Assembly: GCA_014143165.1 (NCBI GenBank)
Contig: GCA_014143165.1_4843.1
Direction: 5' to 3' (one strand)
Length of the DNA stretch: 45,838 nucleotides
From: a phage
Of this stretch, positions 4,605 through 39,642 are shown one piece after another (within the stretch, counting starts at the first letter, position 1; every line of letters begins with the position of its first letter). A model generated the notes under the pieces. The model did not search any database. It worked only from the letters and a program-made list of their open reading frames with translations, and was not told the origin of the DNA. The position numbers and the translations under genes were made by a program.

Positions 4605-6979
4605 TATTCGGTTGCTCTCCTGTTGGCGTTGTAGTTCCTACCGATGCTTTGCCCTATAGGTCCGTTGTTCTCAATATCACTCACAATCGTCTCAATTGTC
4701 ACGCTGCCGTCACCATTATCTCTGGCGCTGCTGCTAACCTGCGCTGAGCTGTTGTTGATGACGTTATTATAAACCACAACGCCACTGCTACCTCCGGTAA
4801 GGTCTTTATTGCTGATTACTGAACCATCGTTGCCTGGAATCATATACTGGCGACCGTTGGATGCCTGGAATATTTCTGGTGCGTTTCCCTCGCCCACTTC
4901 GTACATACTTCCGGCGCTAACAGGGCCACCATTTTTTCGCTTGCCAGCAATACCCATTGCCAGTGCGCCGAGAACGGCACCTACACCAATTGCAGCCGCG
5001 CCACCGAATGAGCCGATTGATGCCACGATTGCCGCTGGAGTCCATGCCGCCGTGGTGGTTGCTGCTGCCGCCGTTGATGCTGCTGTTGTGGTTGCCAGCC
5101 CTGCTGTTTGCGCTGCTGTGGTGGTAGCTGTTGCCGCAACCTGCGCAGTCTGCCCCATAACGGCGGATTTAACCCACTGAACTCCCATTTCAACAAAGCT
5201 GTTTACCAGAGAATTCAGCACCGTAGAGCCGAGGCTGCGCATTGCATCCTGAACGCTCATTGTGCCTGTGAGCAATCCAGTGATGCTGTTTGATGCTGTG
5301 CTCATCGCTGAATCAAGCGCCGTGCCGAACAATTGCGCCCCGAGGCTTTGCTGCTGCCATTCAGCCCACATCGCATCCATTCTCTGCTGGCGATACTGCG
5401 CTTCAATTGCTGCGCGAGTCTGCTCAATCTCCGTTATTTTCTGCGGATATGCTGCGGCGTAGGCGTCAAGGTCAGCCATGCGTTGCTGGTATTCGCTATC
5501 AATGCCAGTCGTTGGAGACGCAATGGCACGCAATCCCTGATATGATTTTTCTACGCGCTGCTTTTCCTTCTCCGCCGCCGCCTGTTCCTTCAGTGCGCTT
5601 TTCTGGTCCCAAATCTTCGCAGCGTACTCGCCAGCCAGTTTTATTTGCTCCTGAGTGGCAGCTTTGCCAAGCGATTGTTGCGCGTTGAGGATGGCTTGCT
5701 CGCGGGATAGTTCGCTGGTAGATGTTGCATTTAGCATGGTTTGCTGGCGTAATTTCTCCAGCTTTTCAGCTACTGATTCAGCTTGTCGTTCTTCGGCGCT
5801 TTTGCCCTTTCCTTTTCCTTTTTTGTCTTTTGTTGGTGCTTGTGCAATCTTCAGGTGTTTTGTTGCTTCAGCCTGTTTCTTTGTCTGCTCGTAACCTTCT
5901 GCTGATGCCTTGACGAATCGCTCGACCTGATCGTTATATTGTTTTTGCTTCTCAATATCATCATCACCAAAAAGCGCATCGACTCCCATCTGCGCCCATG
6001 CGCCCGGGTTTAGCTTAGAAATGACAGTGGCGAGAGATAAAATCTTATCGCTTGTGCTGGTTGATTTGTCGCCGAGGAAATCAATGTATTTTGCCAGCTG
6101 GTCGATAATCTCTACTGCTGTTTTTGATGCACCAGTGGCATCGTTAACGGCAACCACAAGTTTGGAGAATGAAACTTCAAGAGAACCAACAGCCTGATCC
6201 ATTGTGCGAGGAAGTTTTTCAAACTCAGCATTGACCACGCTTGTCCTGTCCTGAATGGCATTTAGCGCATCTTCTGCTGTCAGTTTGCCATCGAGCATTC
6301 TGGCGCGAAGTTCACCCATTGAAATACCAAGACCCGCCGCAATCTGGCGAGCAAGCTCAGGCATCTGCTCAAGGATGGAGTTAAATTCTTCGGCGCGGAT
6401 TGTACCAGAAGCAATTGACTGACCGAACTGACGCAGGGCGTTCGCCATTTCTTCTGTTGATGACCCGCCGATTCGACCTATTTTTTGCAGGGTATCGGTA
6501 AGGTTCAGAACCTGCGCATTTGTCGCGCCAGCCTCCTTCAGTGATGACGTTAATGTTTCCCACAACTTCGTAGTGTCACTGAGGCTTGCGCCAGTGGTTG
6601 AGGCGATATTTGCCAGTGAACTGAATGTTTCGTTCGCGGTTTTCGCATCAGTTGATAATCGAGCAATCCTTGCCTGAAGCTGAGTCATGTTATCGGCAAC
6701 CTCAAGGAATCGCTTTCCCCATTCGATAATCAGTGACACGGATATTGCGCCAGCAAGAGCTGTCATCTGCGTTTTTAGCCCTGAAGCTGCGCCGCCAGCA
6801 TTCTTCATCCCACTGCCAGCATTTCTGGCGTTTTTATCCAGCTTGCCAAGCGCGCTTGTGGTTTTGTTGGTTGATGATTCAAGGTCATCTAAAGTCTTAT
6901 TGGCTGTTGTCGCACCAGCTTTCAGGCCTTTAACATCCATCCCGACTTCATAGACAATTCCGCCGACTTCTTCAGCCAT
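4604..6979 (-). CDS. tail tape measure protein
   Basis: 791 aa, coiled-coil-rich with Ala/Gly/Thr-rich hydrophobic segment near the C-terminus; flanked by chaperone and minor tail genes. Confidence 0.85.
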
Positions 6980-7695
6980 TATGTATTCCTCGCTTTTTTC
7001 GCTTTGCGTTCAGCCAGTGCCTTCATACGCTCGCGGTCTGCTTTAGCCTGATCGTACTCTGCCGCGCGCTCTTCTTTCGTTAACCCTTTCGGCTCTGGGT
7101 ATTTATTTTTAATCATCATCTGAAACTCTGTCATAGACAGGTTTTCAGCTTCGTCACGTGTCATATCGAAATGCGTGCGTGCTGAGATGATGTATTGCGA
7201 CGCATGAAACTCGTTTGTGGTTTTCTTCCCCCGCTCTTCCAGACGTTCAGGCACTTTGAGTGGCGACTTGCCAATGATGCCGTGCTGCATCAGGTTGCGC
7301 GCAATAATAATAATGTCACTCACTGGCATCATGCCAGGAACGTATCGCACGCCGCGTGGTGTTGGCTTCCATCCACCAATCAGCACTGAAACATCATCTT
7401 CGCAACATGACTGCATGACAATATAGGCCGCGCTCAGCACGTGTCTACCATACACAGGCTTGCTGATAGTTTTCATAACCTGCATCTGAGCACCAAATGG
7501 CAGGTATTCTACGTGCTGCAATGGCGCAACATAATCAATGCCATTGAGTCTGGCGTACACCTCGACGATTTCTTTTGGTGTGCCGATTTCATTCATTGCG
7601 CGGAATGATGGCTTAAAGAAAAAACTTCTGTCAGAAAGCGAGATGCGCATCTCTCCGATTTCTGTTAGTGGCGTGCGATTGCTCATGTTTTGCAT
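6979..7695 (-). CDS. tail assembly chaperone (G/GT-like position)
   Basis: 238-aa ORF directly upstream of tape measure with ATGA start/stop overlap; assignment by position. Confidence 0.45.
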   Translation of the reverse strand: MQNMSNRTPLTEIGEMRISLSDRSFFFKPSFRAMNEIGTPKEIVEVYARLNGIDYVAPLQHVEYLPFGAQMQVMKTISKPVYGRHVLSAAYIVMQSCCEDDVSVLIGGWKPTPRGVRYVPGMMPVSDIIIIARNLMQHGIIGKSPLKVPERLEERGKKTTNEFHASQYIISARTHFDMTRDEAENLSMTEFQMMIKNKYPEPKGLTKEERAAEYDQAKADRERMKALAERKAKKARNT

Positions 7696-9641: not shown

Positions 9642-10010
9642 AACAACCCGCAAAAGCAACTCATGCACAGGTCTTTTTTCTTCCGTCAGCATTGGCCTAC
9701 CGAGCGGAGCCTGCAACTGGATGTAGTTCACGCACAAATCAATCGGATGCGTCTTGATGTATTCGATAATCTCATTGGCTTTAGCGTCAACATCCGACAC
9801 GTTATACTGTCCATGTTTGCCGACAACGTACAGCGAGAAATAAAAGTCACCACCAAGTCCATCCATCACCTGCGTGCCGCCGTTGGATTGCAGGACAATA
9901 AATTGCTCGTTGCCATTTTCGGTGTCATTCCAGAACTGCAATTGCGAAGTCCAGCCATCATACAATCCAGCATCCTGAAGATATGCATCAACCAGCTCAA
10001 GCATATTCAT
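9636..10010 (-). CDS. putative tail completion / tail terminator protein
   Basis: 124-aa ORF between the gp10-like connector gene and the major tail gene; call by position. Confidence 0.35.
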   Translation of the reverse strand: MNMLELVDAYLQDAGLYDGWTSQLQFWNDTENGNEQFIVLQSNGGTQVMDGLGGDFYFSLYVVGKHGQYNVSDVDAKANEIIEYIKTHPIDLCVNYIQLQAPLGRPMLTEEKRPVHELLLRVVK

Positions 10011-10471
10011 TAGAGTGTCATCTCCTTCTTAATTACGCTATCAACAAGGTCTTTTGTGCGCTGCGCCGCTTTGGTCAGGAATTGTGGTTCACCACCCGGC
10101 GACCAGTATGTGCCATTTCCGTTGCTGCGTGGTTTACCTGCAAGTTTGCCACTGGCGCTATGAACGTACAGCGCATATTTTGCAGAGTAGCCAACTTTGC
10201 CAGTGATTCGCGTTCCGCTAACTTCCACAGTATCAAACTGACTGTTAATCAGCGTCGATGTATCAATTGGCGTTAGCGTGGCTGATTCGGTGCGGATGAT
10301 GTATGTCGCCGATTTCATAGCACGCACAGCTTTCGTGGCAATTATCTCACCCACAATCTGCGATGTTCTGGCGATGGCTTCGTTAATACCTTTGAGTTTT
10401 GCTGGCATGTTAGCACCACTCCATCCATCCAAAGCATTTTTTGTATGCCCCACCACAGGATAAATCATCAC
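10010..10471 (-). CDS. head-tail connector protein (HK97 gp10-like)
   Basis: 153 aa; ...KYALYVHSASG...PQFLTKAAQ resembles the HK97 gp10 family signature; synteny. Confidence 0.5.
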   Translation of the reverse strand: MMIYPVVGHTKNALDGWSGANMPAKLKGINEAIARTSQIVGEIIATKAVRAMKSATYIIRTESATLTPIDTSTLINSQFDTVEVSGTRITGKVGYSAKYALYVHSASGKLAGKPRSNGNGTYWSPGGEPQFLTKAAQRTKDLVDSVIKKEMTL

Positions 10472-25967: not shown

Positions 25968-26351
25968 ATGGGAATGTACACAGAATTGGTTCTGAAGTGT
26001 CAAATCAAGGGCGACGCACCGAAAGAGGTGATGGATGTAATCCAGTACATGTTTGCTGGTGCAGATGAGCCAGCAAAGCTTCCTGAGCATGAATTTTTCA
26101 CACTACCGCGCTGGGATTCCATTGGTAACTGCTGTAGCTTTTACCATCACCCATCAGTAGTCAATAGTTGCCCAAAATTTGACTACAGCGAAGAGCAATA
26201 CATCTTCAGTCGTAGCGATATCAAAAACTATAGCGGTGAGATTCAGGCATTTCTGGATTGGGTAAAGCCTTACATTGACGCAATGGAAGGCCAGTGCATT
26301 GGTTGGACTTGGTATGAAGAAGAATTGCAGCCTACATTAATTATCTTTTAA
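25968..26351 (+). CDS. hypothetical protein
   Basis: 127-aa ORF. Confidence 0.4.
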   Translation: MGMYTELVLKCQIKGDAPKEVMDVIQYMFAGADEPAKLPEHEFFTLPRWDSIGNCCSFYHHPSVVNSCPKFDYSEEQYIFSRSDIKNYSGEIQAFLDWVKPYIDAMEGQCIGWTWYEEELQPTLIIF

Positions 26352-35267: not shown

Positions 35268-36009
35268 TTCTTTTCCTCATGGCCTTTAGTCTGCAATATG
35301 GACAGCAGTACTTCTTGTCACTTCTGCATCCTGGCAACAGGTCTTTCCCGCACATCAAGCACTTCATTATTAATCCTCACAATAAAGATAACACATAGCT
35401 GTTATCATATCAAGATGTAATGCAATCCATTATCACAATAAAACATATCAAAAGTGGTAGCTTTCCTGTTCAGAACACGATAATCAGCTCATCCATTACT
35501 CTGCGCTTACCTTCACCATTAAACACGCGCACAACGCGATTTACACGTATAGATTCCATTGCATTGCGTGCCTGCTTGCTCATAAAGTTCTGCGCGCCAA
35601 CATGACCAAGTTCTTGTTCCAGCTTCTCTCGTCGATAGATAGTCTTTGCCATTTATTGCACCTCGTAAGAATTAGTGATTGCCTTAATGCGGCGACGATA
35701 CCATTGCATGATGTGCTCGTTATGCCAGTTGCTCATTCTGCTACCCCTTGTACCCTGATTTAGAAACTGCCACTGCGATAATGATGAACGCCACGATAAC
35801 AATACTGGCGATAAGTTCTAATGCTGCGCCTGTCATTTGCTTAACCCATACGCGGATATTAAAGCCTGCATTGCTGCGTTCCAGAATGCTTCGGCAAGAA
35901 TGCTGTTGTTTGTGCGCTCAACTGCAATGCGTGCCATAGCCTGAGCATCCTCAAATTCTTCAAGGTCTTTGTTCTTCATCTCTTCAACCTCACTTGTTTC
36001 GATGAGTTC

Positions 36010-36038
36010 AATCTACATCAGATGTGATTCTACGTCAA
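36010..36038 (-). promoter_or_regulatory. sigma70-type promoter (minus strand; TTGACG-17 bp-TAGATT)
   Basis: Minus-strand TTGACG (36038..36033), 17-bp spacer, TAGATT (36015..36010); first gene ATG at 35979 with GAGG RBS. Confidence 0.5.
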
Positions 36039-36252
36039 CACACAGAGAAAGAAAAAGAACGACTAAATGTTAGTGAACGTTAGCTTACATGCATAGTTAC
36101 ATGTATCACTAATAGTAACCTTTGTTTATTACCTCTATAAAGTATATTAAGATCTTCTTTATATTTATTATAGATATTAATACCTTACGCTACAGAAAAA
36201 CGAAAACCAGCAATTAAGCTGGTTATTTTTTAGTGGTTTTTAGTATTTTTTT

Positions 36253-36480
36253 GCTTCCCGGGCTTCCCGTGATTTCTGGTAAGCGTTTTTTTCTTTGTTT
36301 TCAGTAGCTTCGTAGTGTTTTTTGTATCGCTTCCCGCTTCCAAGAAAAATAATTTTTGAATTTTAAAACTCTCAATTTTTTCGAAAATCTTCTCGGGAAG
36401 CGGGAAGTTGGGAAGCGACCACTTAAACCATTGATTTTTCTGTATTTCCGCTTCCCGGGTTAAAATAAACATTGGGAAGC
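36253..36480. repeat. iteron array (GCTTCCC / GGGAAGC heptamers) in an AT-rich intergenic region; putative replication origin
   Basis: GCTTCCC at 36253, 36263, 36329, 36450 (plus GCTTCC at 36336); GGGAAGC at 36395, 36410, 36474 (plus GGGAAGT at 36402); interspersed A/T-rich tracts; sits between divergent early and replication gene blocks. Confidence 0.5.
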
Positions 36481-36647
36481 CAAATTATTGAAAAATAAAG
36501 AAAAGTTGCCACTCTGGAAGCTGTTATACACCTGTTGGAAATTGTTGTCAACAACCCGGAGCCTGGATCAGCTGCGTGGAATATGCTTGCTGATGTGTCT
36601 TTTTTCCTTTATTCTTTTTTTTGCCAAAAACCAAGCGGAGGTGAGTG

Positions 36648-36878
36648 ATGAGCAACGTGAAGAACGACTACAGATTTGGCAGTGCGATTGGCGAGGTCTG
36701 GGATTTTGTGCGTGATATGTTGGTTGGTGAGTGTAAGGAGTTTAACTTTGATGAGTTAACCGCTAATGAAGGATTAAGGGGATTCAGAGTTAACCTTCAT
36801 AAGGTTGCAGTGCGGAACGGATGGATGTTTAAAACACGAGCTAAGGCTGGTGGTTTGTGGGTTAAGCGGATTAAGTGA
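36648..36878 (+). CDS. hypothetical protein
   Basis: GGAGGTGA RBS then ATG 36648; first plus-strand gene after the iteron region. Confidence 0.45.
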   Translation: MSNVKNDYRFGSAIGEVWDFVRDMLVGECKEFNFDELTANEGLRGFRVNLHKVAVRNGWMFKTRAKAGGLWVKRIK

Positions 36879-36889
36879 GGTGTTGGGAT

Positions 36890-37312
36890 ATGAAAAGGTA
36901 CTACATTGAGGCAGTTGGGCCTGATGGTAAAAAGGTGTATGCCAGCGGTAGATGTGGTTTTCTGCATGATTTTACCTATGCCAAGTTTTTCAAAACAATA
37001 GAGGAGGCTGAGAGGTATATGGCGTTGCGGAAGCCGCATCTCCCATGTGAAATAAAATGCAAGGAGCAAAGGGTAAAAAAACGGGCCGCGTCTGTGCGGG
37101 AGCAAAAACCGACAATGGAGGGAGAGGCTCGAAGCTTCGTCTACCGACTTGGTTTGGGTAAGGGAAAGCATTTTGTGTTTGATGATTTTGCGTTGATAAG
37201 GAGTATTGAGCAGTTGAGAATTGCGCTTTCCGTAGTTGGTAAGAAGCTGCAAAAAAAATTCAGTGTCAAGATGGTTGCACGTAATACCGCTTATGTGGTG
37301 AGGGTTAAATGA
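36890..37312 (+). CDS. hypothetical protein
   Basis: ORF in the replication block; start uncertain (36875 or 36890). Confidence 0.4.
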   Translation: MKRYYIEAVGPDGKKVYASGRCGFLHDFTYAKFFKTIEEAERYMALRKPHLPCEIKCKEQRVKKRAASVREQKPTMEGEARSFVYRLGLGKGKHFVFDDFALIRSIEQLRIALSVVGKKLQKKFSVKMVARNTAYVVRVK

Positions 37313-39642
37313 TGATTGGTTATGAAGATTACCGCAAATGTGGCTTCCCTATTATTGGAATCCATGCAATGGATATCGACCGCAATTGCACATGCGGTGA
37401 TCCAGAGTGCAATGCTGCTGGTAAGCATCCGGTTATGAGTAACTGGCAGCTTGGAGTTATATGGGCTGATGACCAGATTGAAAATATGGCTGAATATGGT
37501 CAACTGCAGTCATTCGGTGTCCTTGTGAATGGTTATCTGGTCGTTGATATTGATCCACGCAACGGAGGTAATGATGGATATGAATCTCTTTGTGATGCCT
37601 TAGACGTAGAGCTTGCTGACGAAGCTGGTTTTACGGTTAAGACTGGCGGTGGTGGTCGGCACATCTATTACAAACTTCCTGAAGGAATAAAGCTGCGCTC
37701 TCATGACAGAAGGTTTAAGGGTATTGACTTTAAATCATCTGGTTTTGTTGTTGGCTGTGGTTCTTTTCATAAAACCGGAAACTTTTATGAGGCCGAGCAT
37801 GGATCCCCTTCAGAGATAACTGAATGTCCATCTGAACTTATTGAGCTTTTGTTGCGCCCTGAGAGAACAGAAGACGAGGTTTTCACGCTTGATAGTAAAA
37901 ATTACAGCATTGCCGAAATGGAGGATATGCTCAAATACATCAAAGATGGTGATGAGTATGACCCATGGCTTCATGTAGGTATGGCTATCCACGAAGCTAC
38001 AGAAGGCAATGGTTTTGAGCTTTGGGATAGATGGTCATCGCAGTTCAGCAAATACAGAGCTGAAGAGATGGACGCAAAATGGCACTCCTTTGGAAAGGAC
38101 GGCGTTAGCGAAAAGATAACCGAAGCAACGCTGGTTTATCTCGCGCAAGAGGGAGGGTGGGTAAGGCAAGTAACTTTTGAGGCTACTCCAGAGGAAATTG
38201 AGAAACTTGAGTCTTTCGAGCGAGAGATGGCAATGGGTGTTGGGGAATGCCCTGTAGAGTACAAAAGTGTTGATGTCCGTTATCCCCCTGGATTTGTTGG
38301 TCGCCTTACGGCGTGGATTAATAAGAACTGTGCAGAGAAGCGAGAGAATATTGCAGCACTTGCTGCATTGCACGCTGCATCCATGATTTGCGGTGCGTCA
38401 TCTGATATTTACCTTACAAACAGGAAGGCTTTGCCAAACCTGTTTGCTGTTGGTATAGCTGGTTCAGGTTCTGGTAAGGGTGATGTTCTTGCTGCGCTAC
38501 AAAAGATAATTGATTGCTCAGGATTGAGCAAGACTGTCGCCGGTAAGATACGTTCAGAGCGTGCGATATATGAAGGTCTTTGCGCTAACCAGATGTTTAA
38601 TATCATCATGGATGAGATTGGGATAAAACTTGGGAGTGTTGTTGGTCAGAAAGTAAGCGAGTACAACATGGCAACCGCTGGTGCGATCATGGAGGCTTAC
38701 ACGTCAGAAGTTCTTTATTGTGACCAGCGGGTTACTGAGGATTTCATTAAGTCTTTCGAAAAAAGAAAGGCTATGCTGTTAATGGCTATTGAGGAAAATG
38801 AGATACAGGCAGACCCCGTAGACATTAAGTGTCAGTTTGATGATGTGATAAACAGAATTGACGGAGCTATAAGGAATCCATTTTTTTCAATCTTTGGTGT
38901 GTCTACTGATGATCAGTTTAAGCGACTTATCACTGAAGAAAACATTAAGTCAGGTCTTATGGGTCGCGCAATGATTATGCAGGAGTTACAGGAGATTGCT
39001 GACGAAAACGAAAACGTAAACTACTGTGATCTACCTATGGATATGCAACTGACCATAAAAACAATAATAAATGGCGGAACGGCTGGGCACAAAAACTGGA
39101 CAGACTCAATAATCAGTCAAAAAGAAAGACGGATTATAAAAGCTACGCCTGAAGTTTCTCAGCTCGCTAAAGAGTTCTTCTCATGGATTAAAACCGTTGC
39201 AAGAAAGCATGTAGAAAATGGTACTGGTTATCACCCATTGATAAACAGATGCGCCGTGAAGGTGGCAAAGATTGCTGGCATTCTCGCGTGCGATACTGGC
39301 GTCATAACCATGGAGCACTTGAGATATGCGGTAGCATTAACAATTAAATCAACAAGCGATCTGATGATGCGTGCTGACAGTATCGCCGGAGCGAAGTCTA
39401 AAGCTATGGAAGAAAGAATTGAAGGTATTTTCTCCATGGTTAAAGAATATGTTAAGCGTGGAATGACCAAAACAGCAATGGTTAGAGGGGTAGCAAAAGA
39501 AGGTGGGTATAAACGTGCTGATGTCGAGAGGTGCGTAGAGAAGTTGTTATCAGATGGTATTATTTGCATTGATGAAAATGCAAAAAGAACATCTCACAAC
39601 GTAATAATTTACAAATTAACAAATGATGAGGTTGAGATATGA
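37309..39642 (+). CDS. DNA primase-polymerase (prim-pol N-terminal domain) replication protein
   Basis: N-terminal ...GVLVNGYLVVDIDPRNGG...TVKTGGGGRHIYYKLPEG...FKGIDFKSSGFVVGCGSFH matches the prim-pol fold; 777 aa with a long C-terminal extension. Confidence 0.65.
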   Translation: MMIGYEDYRKCGFPIIGIHAMDIDRNCTCGDPECNAAGKHPVMSNWQLGVIWADDQIENMAEYGQLQSFGVLVNGYLVVDIDPRNGGNDGYESLCDALDVELADEAGFTVKTGGGGRHIYYKLPEGIKLRSHDRRFKGIDFKSSGFVVGCGSFHKTGNFYEAEHGSPSEITECPSELIELLLRPERTEDEVFTLDSKNYSIAEMEDMLKYIKDGDEYDPWLHVGMAIHEATEGNGFELWDRWSSQFSKYRAEEMDAKWHSFGKDGVSEKITEATLVYLAQEGGWVRQVTFEATPEEIEKLESFEREMAMGVGECPVEYKSVDVRYPPGFVGRLTAWINKNCAEKRENIAALAALHAASMICGASSDIYLTNRKALPNLFAVGIAGSGSGKGDVLAALQKIIDCSGLSKTVAGKIRSERAIYEGLCANQMFNIIMDEIGIKLGSVVGQKVSEYNMATAGAIMEAYTSEVLYCDQRVTEDFIKSFEKRKAMLLMAIEENEIQADPVDIKCQFDDVINRIDGAIRNPFFSIFGVSTDDQFKRLITEENIKSGLMGRAMIMQELQEIADENENVNYCDLPMDMQLTIKTIINGGTAGHKNWTDSIISQKERRIIKATPEVSQLAKEFFSWIKTVARKHVENGTGYHPLINRCAVKVAKIAGILACDTGVITMEHLRYAVALTIKSTSDLMMRADSIAGAKSKAMEERIEGIFSMVKEYVKRGMTKTAMVRGVAKEGGYKRADVERCVEKLLSDGIICIDENAKRTSHNVIIYKLTNDEVEI

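Follow-up and report, generated by a model that had tools for sequence, protein, structure and literature searches.

An iteron array in Sf11-like siphophages as a candidate replication origin of an MCM-like primase-helicase

Introduction

Among the described systems that come closest to the locus reported here are the replication origins of the staphylococcal pathogenicity islands (SaPIs), whose initiators, Rep or PriRep, use a C-terminal winged helix to bind 6-12 short iterons placed around an A/T-rich centre, at least two per side and in opposite directions (PMC9371898). We analysed a stretch of phage DNA of 45,838 nucleotides (GenBank assembly GCA_014143165.1, contig GCA_014143165.1_4843.1), hereafter the window, which is all or most of the genome of an Sf11-like siphophage of enterobacteria. 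At 36253-36521 it carries a dense array of the heptamer GCTTCCC/GGGAAGC, 0.8-1.05 kb upstream of a gene for a primase-helicase of 777 amino acids (aa). We propose, with a probability of roughly 0.7, that this array is an origin of the self-loading-helicase type, at which the primase-helicase would bind facing iterons via its winged helix, open the A/T-rich DNA, load itself and prime synthesis. We consider this the best reading of the array because the facing layout recurs in related phages and because the repeat word sorts only with the winged helix of the primase.

The likeness to the SaPI origins extends to several features. The window array holds 11 copies of a 7-9 bp word in 269 bp, within the range of 6-12 short repeats; it has an A/T-rich centre with at least two oppositely directed repeats on each side; and a helicase with a predicted C-terminal winged helix is encoded nearby. 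In PriRep5 a primase is fused to the helicase, as in the window protein, and the SaPI elements differ in specificity from one another, as do the words described below (PMC9371898). The two systems part ways in that SaPI Rep is a superfamily 3 (SF3) helicase, whereas the window protein belongs to the DUF3987 family (superfamily 6, SF6, MCM-like); in that the SaPI origin directly follows rep, whereas the window array lies upstream of the primase gene; and in that the host element here is a virulent siphophage rather than a satellite.

The origin of P4 consists of short repeats in both orientations, and P4 also requires a second repeat cluster, crr, several kb away, which has no equivalent in the window in the form of a second GCTTCCC cluster. 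The P4 alpha protein carries primase, helicase and a C-terminal winged-helix origin binder on one polypeptide (PMC2777425), but its primase is of the DnaG type and its helicase is SF3, whereas the window protein combines an AEP-type (archaeo-eukaryotic primase) Prim-Pol with an MCM-like motor. ORF904 of the Sulfolobus plasmid pRN1 presents the same order of primase, helicase and winged helix (PMC2777425). However, its helicase is SF3, no sequence-specific site has been found for its winged helix, and the cis region that it needs, located downstream of the gene, has not been described as an array of iterons (PMC2777425, PMC4234260). Archaeal Orc1/Cdc6 and MCM are AAA+ proteins with a C-terminal winged helix and a fold that resembles that of the window protein. 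At archaeal origins, inverted recognition boxes (origin recognition boxes, ORB) flank an A/T-rich unwinding element. There, however, initiation and unwinding fall to two different proteins, whereas one chain would do both here, and Orc1/Cdc6 and MCM have no detectable sequence relationship to the window protein.

In a virulent siphophage of another group, Enterococcus phage Abitsa (Efquatrovirus), seven 10-bp repeats around an A/T-rich region were identified in silico beside a self-loading helicase, and a SaPI5-like origin was proposed (PMC13517437). The Abitsa helicase is described as a PriRep5 homologue, its repeats differ from those of the window, and no co-variation was reported (PMC13517437). 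The iteron origins of plasmids such as RK2, pPS10, F and P1 also place repeated initiator-binding words beside A/T-rich DNA, and there too the words set replicon specificity. Plasmid iterons, however, are helix-phased direct repeats of 17-22 bp that occur together with DnaA boxes and are read by a dedicated Rep containing two winged helices, whereas the window repeats measure 7-9 bp, run in both orientations and have no DnaA box in the array. The lambda-type origin, with iterons inside the initiator gene and a separate helicase loader, likewise differs from the window, where the array is intergenic. Among the eight neighbouring proteins scanned, none matched a Rep family and none an O/P-like family. 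Taken as an origin, the window array resembles the SaPI/P4 type, in which short facing repeats go with a self-loading helicase, more than it does the classical iterons of plasmids.

To our knowledge, the origins of most virulent siphophages are unmapped, and the role of the C-terminal winged helix in DUF3987 (MCM-like) phage helicases has so far only been guessed. The DUF3987 proteins are classed as superfamily 6, are distantly related to MCM, are often fused to AEP primases and end in a winged helix-turn-helix, and they are predicted to be replicative helicases (PMC4889955). A PriCT-DUF3987 protein has been demonstrated to unwind DNA (PMC11724360). In the accessible portions of the literature, no published origin was found for the DUF3987 family or for Sf11-like phages. 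We regard the locus as probably belonging to a known kind of system, the iteron origin that a self-loading primase-helicase reads by means of its winged helix, with the MCM-like DUF3987 motor as its new element. More tentatively, array and protein could be the first origin-initiator pair defined for phage MCM-like DUF3987 (SF6) primase-helicases, equipped with a modular reading code.

The repeat array and its layout

The initial annotation of the window had described at least eight copies of GCTTCCC/GGGAAGC, in both orientations and interleaved with A/T-rich tracts, within about 230 bp, and had taken the interval 36046-36640 as a putative iteron-type origin or initiator-binding array. Exact copies number nine in the window, and the seven that lie within 36253-36480 span 228 bp, in agreement with the extent given. 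Allowing one mismatch brings the array to 11 copies, seven exact and four near-copies, within 36253-36521 (269 bp); the count of eight is thus right if near-copies are included and too high for exact ones. The interval was drawn too wide, since its left third (36046-36235) is free of repeats and holds a separate conserved block and a terminator.

With one mismatch allowed, the background rate in the remainder of the window is 0.70 copies per 290 bp, and the two exact copies outside the array (37343 and 44921) are isolated, there being no second GCTTCCC cluster in the window. In a scan of all 7-mers of the window in 300-bp spans, the GCTTCCC cluster was the densest. Among 40 Markov-1 random genomes, the best 7-mer cluster held three copies 22 times, four copies 17 times and five copies once.

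The oriented consensus of the copies is cGCTTCCCg, and tandem copies are packed 7-9 bp apart. The innermost copies face each other, those at 36329 and 36336 on the plus strand pointing across a 49-bp spacer at those at 36395, 36402 and 36410 on the minus strand (Table 1). The spacer is bracketed by a perfect 12-nucleotide inverted repeat, CTTCCCGCTTCC (36330-36341) and GGAAGCGGGAAG (36396-36407). Copies in both orientations do alternate with A/T-rich tracts (77-86% A+T), which besides the spacer include a 28-bp flank (86% A+T) and a 31-bp right flank (77% A+T). In terms of duplex stability, the spacer ranks as the fourth least stable non-overlapping 50-mer, in the top 0.2% of the window. The cumulative GC skew reaches its global minimum at 36.0-36.5 kb, that is, at the array.

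For the DnaA box TTWTNCACA, the only match in the window is at 26094, a long way from the array, and the array region has none. A match to the consensus of the integration host factor (IHF) lies inside the right block (Table 1) and could, with low confidence on the basis of the match, serve as a bending site. A motif resembling it, TAAACYATTGATTT, occupies the equivalent position in Sf11-type arrays and in the array of contig L032.

Recurrence of the array in related phages

Of the interval 35900-36900, the whole is matched by Escherichia phage ECO95 1-6-1, at 88% identity, and the left third alone by Shigella phage Sf11, Klebsiella phage YX3973, E. coli phage Sa179lw and Salmonella phage gmqsjt-1. 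To the right of a conserved terminator the DNA of the relatives cannot be aligned with the window, yet it displays the same architecture, built from a word that is specific to each group. Word A, CGCTTCCCG, is found in the window, ECO95 1-6-1, three IMG/VR contigs (L004, L005 and L016), Sf11, and the contigs L032 and L033; word D, CTATTTCCCG, in gmqsjt-1 and ECO111 5-P; word B, CTAAATGCCA, in YX3973; and word C, CTATTTGCCA, in Sa179lw and L019. Beyond these, the word is CCTATTT in L031, CTAAAG(TC) in L034 and VLCpiS13b, TCTGTAAA in L036 and TTAGAGACG in Yersinia phage P400.

We tested the layout on 13 arrays, that of the window and those of 12 other loci. A run of plus-strand copies, a spacer and then minus-strand copies follow one another in 11 of the 13, with a spacer, as picked by the script, of 36-80 bp overall and, for the nine arrays of window type, of 52-80 bp. 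The comparison with related phages thus finds the array present and its layout mostly kept while the word varies, and the same holds for most of the spacer DNA, which differs among arrays of common layout. The Sf11-type arrays have the word alone in common with the window, their other intergenic DNA being unalignable. Because the Sf11-type word sits in otherwise unrelated spacer DNA, selection appears to act on word and layout and not on the whole sequence. In VLCpiS13b, L034, P400 and L036 the primase module is inverted, and the array is found downstream of the primase operon, at 0.4-1.2 kb, beside the early promoter.

Two further features of the related arrays may be recorded. Homopolymer runs of 7-11 C or G lie in the spacer or at its edge in many of them (L033 3510-3580, L032 3510-3575, L026 3030-3095, L005 2480-2500, L024 9915-9975, L034 7455-7470) and are absent from the window array; in L032, L033 and gmqsjt-1 a C-run and a G-run bracket the spacer. 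The GenBank record of Sf11 (L021, MF158038.1) has its position 1 in mid-array, in a T-run of the spacer; the assembly is probably circularly permuted and was opened there arbitrarily.

Co-variation of the word with the primase winged helix

The association test compared seven complete genomes that fall into three word groups (A, D and B/C), using 438 conserved 40-aa tiles from six frames and 175 segments of open reading frames (ORFs). The only conserved tiles to separate the three groups are those over 39409-39593, and with tiles and ORF segments taken together, only 39352-39593, corresponding to primase aa ~701-760, separates the word types. Primase residues ~701-766 occur as three alleles that match word groups A, D and B/C exactly. 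Across the compared phages, residues 301-690 are 96-100% identical, whereas the N-terminal 300 and the C-terminal 77 residues are only 84-92% identical in the same phages; this sharp mosaic indicates recombination at the domain boundaries of the primase. These comparisons show a genuine array beyond chance expectation, with a conserved layout and a word that co-varies with the winged helix.

In L032 and L033, which represent a separate lineage, identity in the primase is 69-70% for its N-terminal and middle portions and 82% for the C-terminal domain. Their wing sequence, AKRTSHNVIIYKL, is identical to that of the window, and their arrays are also made of GCTTCCC.

Several other candidates for the reader of the word were rejected. 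Phages gmqsjt-1 and ECO111, with word D, carry the N-terminal primase allele of YX3973 and L019, with words B and C, which speaks against the N-terminal domain. The 76-aa small protein is of the Sa179lw type (word C) in Sf11 (word A), and in Sf11-type phages the 140-aa protein lacks a counterpart of full length. Between phages with words A, C and D the Cro-like protein is 98-99% identical, while the 131-aa protein encoded downstream of the primase is near-identical in gmqsjt-1 (word D) and YX3973 (word B).

The same test bears on the idea that the array is a packaging (pac) site or a partition-like site, to which the small terminase subunit or a ParB/KorB-like protein would bind. In relatives the terminase genes lie a few kb leftward, the GenBank record of Sf11 begins within the array, and Sf11 encodes a KorB-like protein. 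However, no conserved tile or ORF segment beyond the primase C-terminus follows the word, in a test that covered proteins present and sufficiently conserved in all seven genomes, a set without, for example, the product of the gene upstream of the large terminase. The genome of P400 is reported to be circularly permuted (PMC9412545), and the array stays beside the replication module and not beside the terminase genes. Given above all that no other conserved segment among those covered follows the word, we hold a packaging or partition role to be highly improbable.

The primase-helicase and its predicted winged helix

The 777-aa protein shows, above the Pfam cut-offs, a Prim-Pol (AEP) domain at aa 18-175, PriCT_2 at aa 205-279 and a DUF3987 AAA+ MCM-like helicase at aa ~320-690, with a Walker A motif, GSGKG, in its translation. 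Pfam assigned the helicase to DUF3987 rather than to D5_N or an SF3 family. The full-length AlphaFold model has a predicted local distance difference test score (pLDDT) of 85.9. Among the best 50 Foldseek matches listed for it, MCM subunits come at the top (E down to 6e-5), ORC/Cdc6 and clamp-loader chains are also present, and there is no SF3 helicase or SaPI Rep. The primase sequence itself has no match among Protein Data Bank chains at E up to 1. With its AEP primase, PriCT domain, DUF3987 core with a Walker motif and modelled C-terminal winged helix, the protein conforms to the DUF3987/SF6 pattern, and its MCM-like structural matches agree with the published placement of DUF3987 in SF6 (PMC4889955).

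A homologue search with the C-terminal 200 aa alone returned three matches and was for this reason rerun with the full-length primase as query. The AlphaFold2 model of residues 628-777, built on a 65-sequence alignment, has a mean pLDDT of 87.6 and shows residues 700-770 as a canonical winged helix, a fold that is thus predicted with confidence. It comprises helices H1 (700-716), H2 (721-732) and H3 (736-749), a strand (752-754), the wing (755-766) and a second strand (767-770). The substitutions that distinguish the alleles map to helices 2 and 3, to the strand that follows and to the wing. On the strength of this co-variation, the winged helix of the primase-helicase is probably the protein domain that binds the iterons.

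The alleles also hint at how the word might be read. Words A and D have in common the helix-3 residues ADVER..LSDG..ICID together with the 3' half-word TTCCCG. Words D, B and C and the word of L031 share a wing of the type SN[K/A][A/V] and the 5' half-word CTA[T/A][T/A]. A wing SHNV goes with a 5' CGC, and a helix 3 of the form DDVKR..IEDG..EKD with a 3' TGCCA. These pairings, drawn from a small number of alleles, suggest a modular code in which helix 3 corresponds to the 3' half of the iteron and the wing to the 5' half.

Gene context and neighbouring elements

The small leftward early genes stop at 35979 and are followed by ~670 bp of non-coding DNA, in which the array is embedded (Table 1). 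The rightward operon beyond it encodes, in this order, the 76-aa protein, the 140-aa protein, the primase-helicase and the 131-aa protein; past it come a leftward Cro-like gene and then rightward Sak4-like and other replication and recombination genes.

Table 1. Features of the array region and of the adjacent replication operon, in window coordinates.
Feature	Position	Strand	Details	Basis
Leftward early promoter	36010..36038	-	TTGACG / 17-nt spacer / TAGATT; kept in relatives; left edge of control region	Promoter scan
Conserved non-coding block without repeats	36040..36204		Contains least stable 50-mer (36133-36182) and 19-nt palindrome (36134-36174)	
Bidirectional intrinsic terminator	36205..36232		Hairpin 36205-36224, AACCAGC-loop-GCTGGTT; T-run on both strands	Terminator scan, both strands
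Left iteron block	36253..36342	+	36253-36259, 36262-36268, 36329-36335, 36336-36342 (one mismatch)	
Near-copy within left iteron block	36278-36284	-		
Central spacer, proposed unwinding element	36343..36391		49 bp, 84% A+T	
Right iteron block	36395..36521	-	36395-36401, 36402-36408 (one mismatch), 36410-36416, 36474-36480, 36515-36521 (one mismatch)	
IHF consensus match, possible host-factor bending site	36424..36436	-	WATCAANNNNTTR; inside right block; 1 of 2 window matches	
Copy within right iteron block	36450-36456	+		
Candidate promoter of replication operon	36587..36615	+	TTGCTG / 17-nt spacer / TATTCT	Read from sequences and alignment
76-aa protein	36648..36878	+	phrog_28700, no assigned function; first gene of rightward operon	
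140-aa protein	36890..37312	+	C-terminal half is a paralogue of the 76-aa protein	
777-aa primase-helicase, proposed initiator	37309..39642	+		Pfam and PHROGs scans, AlphaFold model
Winged-helix domain (aa 700-777), proposed iteron reader	39406..39639	+		AlphaFold2

The conserved block to the left of the array offers a different place for the DNA to open. The repeats could serve to recruit the initiator while opening and first priming take place at 36133-36182, as in plasmid origins that have an unwinding element beside the iterons. No 50-mer of the window is less stable than this segment (dG -46.1, the mean being -67.5), and it is nearly invariant among phages of differing word: the block as a whole is 85-94% identical among such relatives, and its mean column identity is 79% when aligned over nine phages, distant ones included. 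Yet a terminator hairpin intervenes between block and array, the spacer between facing repeats is itself a conserved feature in most relatives, and the block could simply be an upstream or regulatory part of the early promoter. We judge it decidedly unlikely that opening is confined to this site, although the block may unwind instead of, or in addition to, the spacer, or may serve as an upstream promoter or regulatory element or as an operator.

The terminator lies between the early promoter block and the repeat array. Its stem shows compensatory changes, CCAGC/GCTGG in the window becoming CCCGC/GCGGG in L031 and CCCGG/CCGGG in L032, and its fold has a z-score of -3.0. When a small RNA was sought from the conserved block through the terminator, the terminator hairpin was the sole stable fold and no convincing rightward promoter was seen. 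An Rfam scan of 35500-37000 (E up to 1) gave just chance microRNA-like matches that scored well short of the gathering thresholds, and pointed to no known RNA family in the interval.

The leftward early promoter, placed at the edge of the region by the initial annotation, was recovered by our promoter scan. The candidate rightward promoter is missed by a consensus scan in the window because its -35 element matches at three of six positions only; in L003, L004 and gmqsjt-1 this element is TTGACT. The two ORFs called across the array, 36230..36472 (minus strand) and 36488..36715 (plus strand), had been suspected to be spurious, and they are: in L003 and L004, the pair of closest relatives, stop codons and frameshifts break both of them.

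The position of the array between two divergent promoters gives some weight to the view that it is a purely transcriptional operator set, through which the winged helix or another factor would repress or time the replication or the early operon, replication starting elsewhere, for instance in a recombination-dependent manner via the Sak4-like annealing protein and the helicase. The phage does encode Sak4-like and other recombination functions, and the inverted-module relatives keep the array at the early promoter and not at the primase gene. Plasmid iteron arrays, moreover, commonly autoregulate as well. Against this stand the bidirectional terminator and the ~170 bp of conserved DNA that part the array from the early promoter, and the position of the array away from the primase promoter in relatives whose module is inverted. 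Repression needs no facing repeats around an easily melted spacer, and the reader domain is carried by a helicase-primase and not by a repressor. An exclusively regulatory array seems to us unlikely; a regulatory role may nonetheless exist, alone or in addition, and is compatible with origin function.

Among the leftward early genes, a Pfam scan of four ORFs gave nothing above the curated cut-off, a weak ADIP match on a 155-aa ORF falling well below it. The phrog_28700 paralogues ahead of the primase gene are 31-89% identical between otherwise near-identical phages, and these small proteins vary in number, with two copies in the window and one each in Sf11 and Sa179lw.

Proposed mechanism and its weighing

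In the mechanism that we propose, the primase-helicase would be made from the adjacent rightward operon and would use its C-terminal winged helix to bind the iterons of 7-9 bp (cGCTTCCCg). Because the innermost iterons point at each other, protein assemblies would form on both sides of the 49-bp A/T-rich spacer. Melting would take place in the spacer, or in the still less stable conserved block 170-210 bp leftward, upon which the MCM-like ring would load itself, the fused AEP primase would lay the first primers, and synthesis would proceed in both directions. Divergent transcription from the early and replication promoters might aid the opening, as might, possibly, IHF bending at 36424-36436. 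We infer that iteron binding, melting, helicase loading, priming and initiation would all occur at the array.

The facing repeats, the recurring layout, the unique co-variation of word and winged helix and the GC-skew minimum lend support, at the level of sequence, to the original suggestion of an iteron origin or initiator-binding array. Several points weigh against it. The facing layout is not evident in VLCpiS13b and P400, two of the 13 arrays. As the inverted-module relatives demonstrate, the adjacency of array and initiator gene is not constant. The spacer is less unstable than the nearby segment 36133-36182, and the GC-skew minimum is not independent evidence, because the direction of transcription switches at the same place. 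YX3973 and L019 have identical winged helices, and their words differ at two central positions (CTAAATGCCA and CTATTTGCCA). The independent events that link allele and word are few, since there are three word types in complete genomes and a few more in partial contigs. Finally, the accessible parts of the literature on Sf11, Sa179lw, YX3973 and P400 report no mapped origin.

The locus pairs ~70 residues with a 9-bp word, a match that is precise and testable, and the natural allele swaps in near-isogenic genomes provide ready specificity controls. If the array is an origin read by the primase-helicase, it would constitute a minimal initiation system with an MCM-like motor, in which a single protein reads the origin, unwinds and primes. 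Origin annotation would also become easier in Sf11-, Skate- and VLCpiS13-like phages, which include isolates obtained as therapy candidates, and the locus would show replicon specificity diversifying through small recombination patches. Should the modular code hold, recombination that exchanges ~70 codons along with a small number of 9-bp words would give rise to new replicon specificities in virulent phages that are otherwise near-identical.

The inverted-module relatives display two features of their own. Between the primase operon and the array they carry an extra gene for a protein of 191 aa (in VLCpiS13b, L020, at 9738-10313 on the minus strand), which has no counterpart at that place in the window and whose product looks, by its sequence, like a DNA-binding protein. 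In L036, the most distant relative examined, at least five copies of a second repeat family, CGTTAGA/TCTAACG, flank the TCTGTAAA array (6700-6770 and 7125-7215), which suggests a second DNA-binding factor in that phage.

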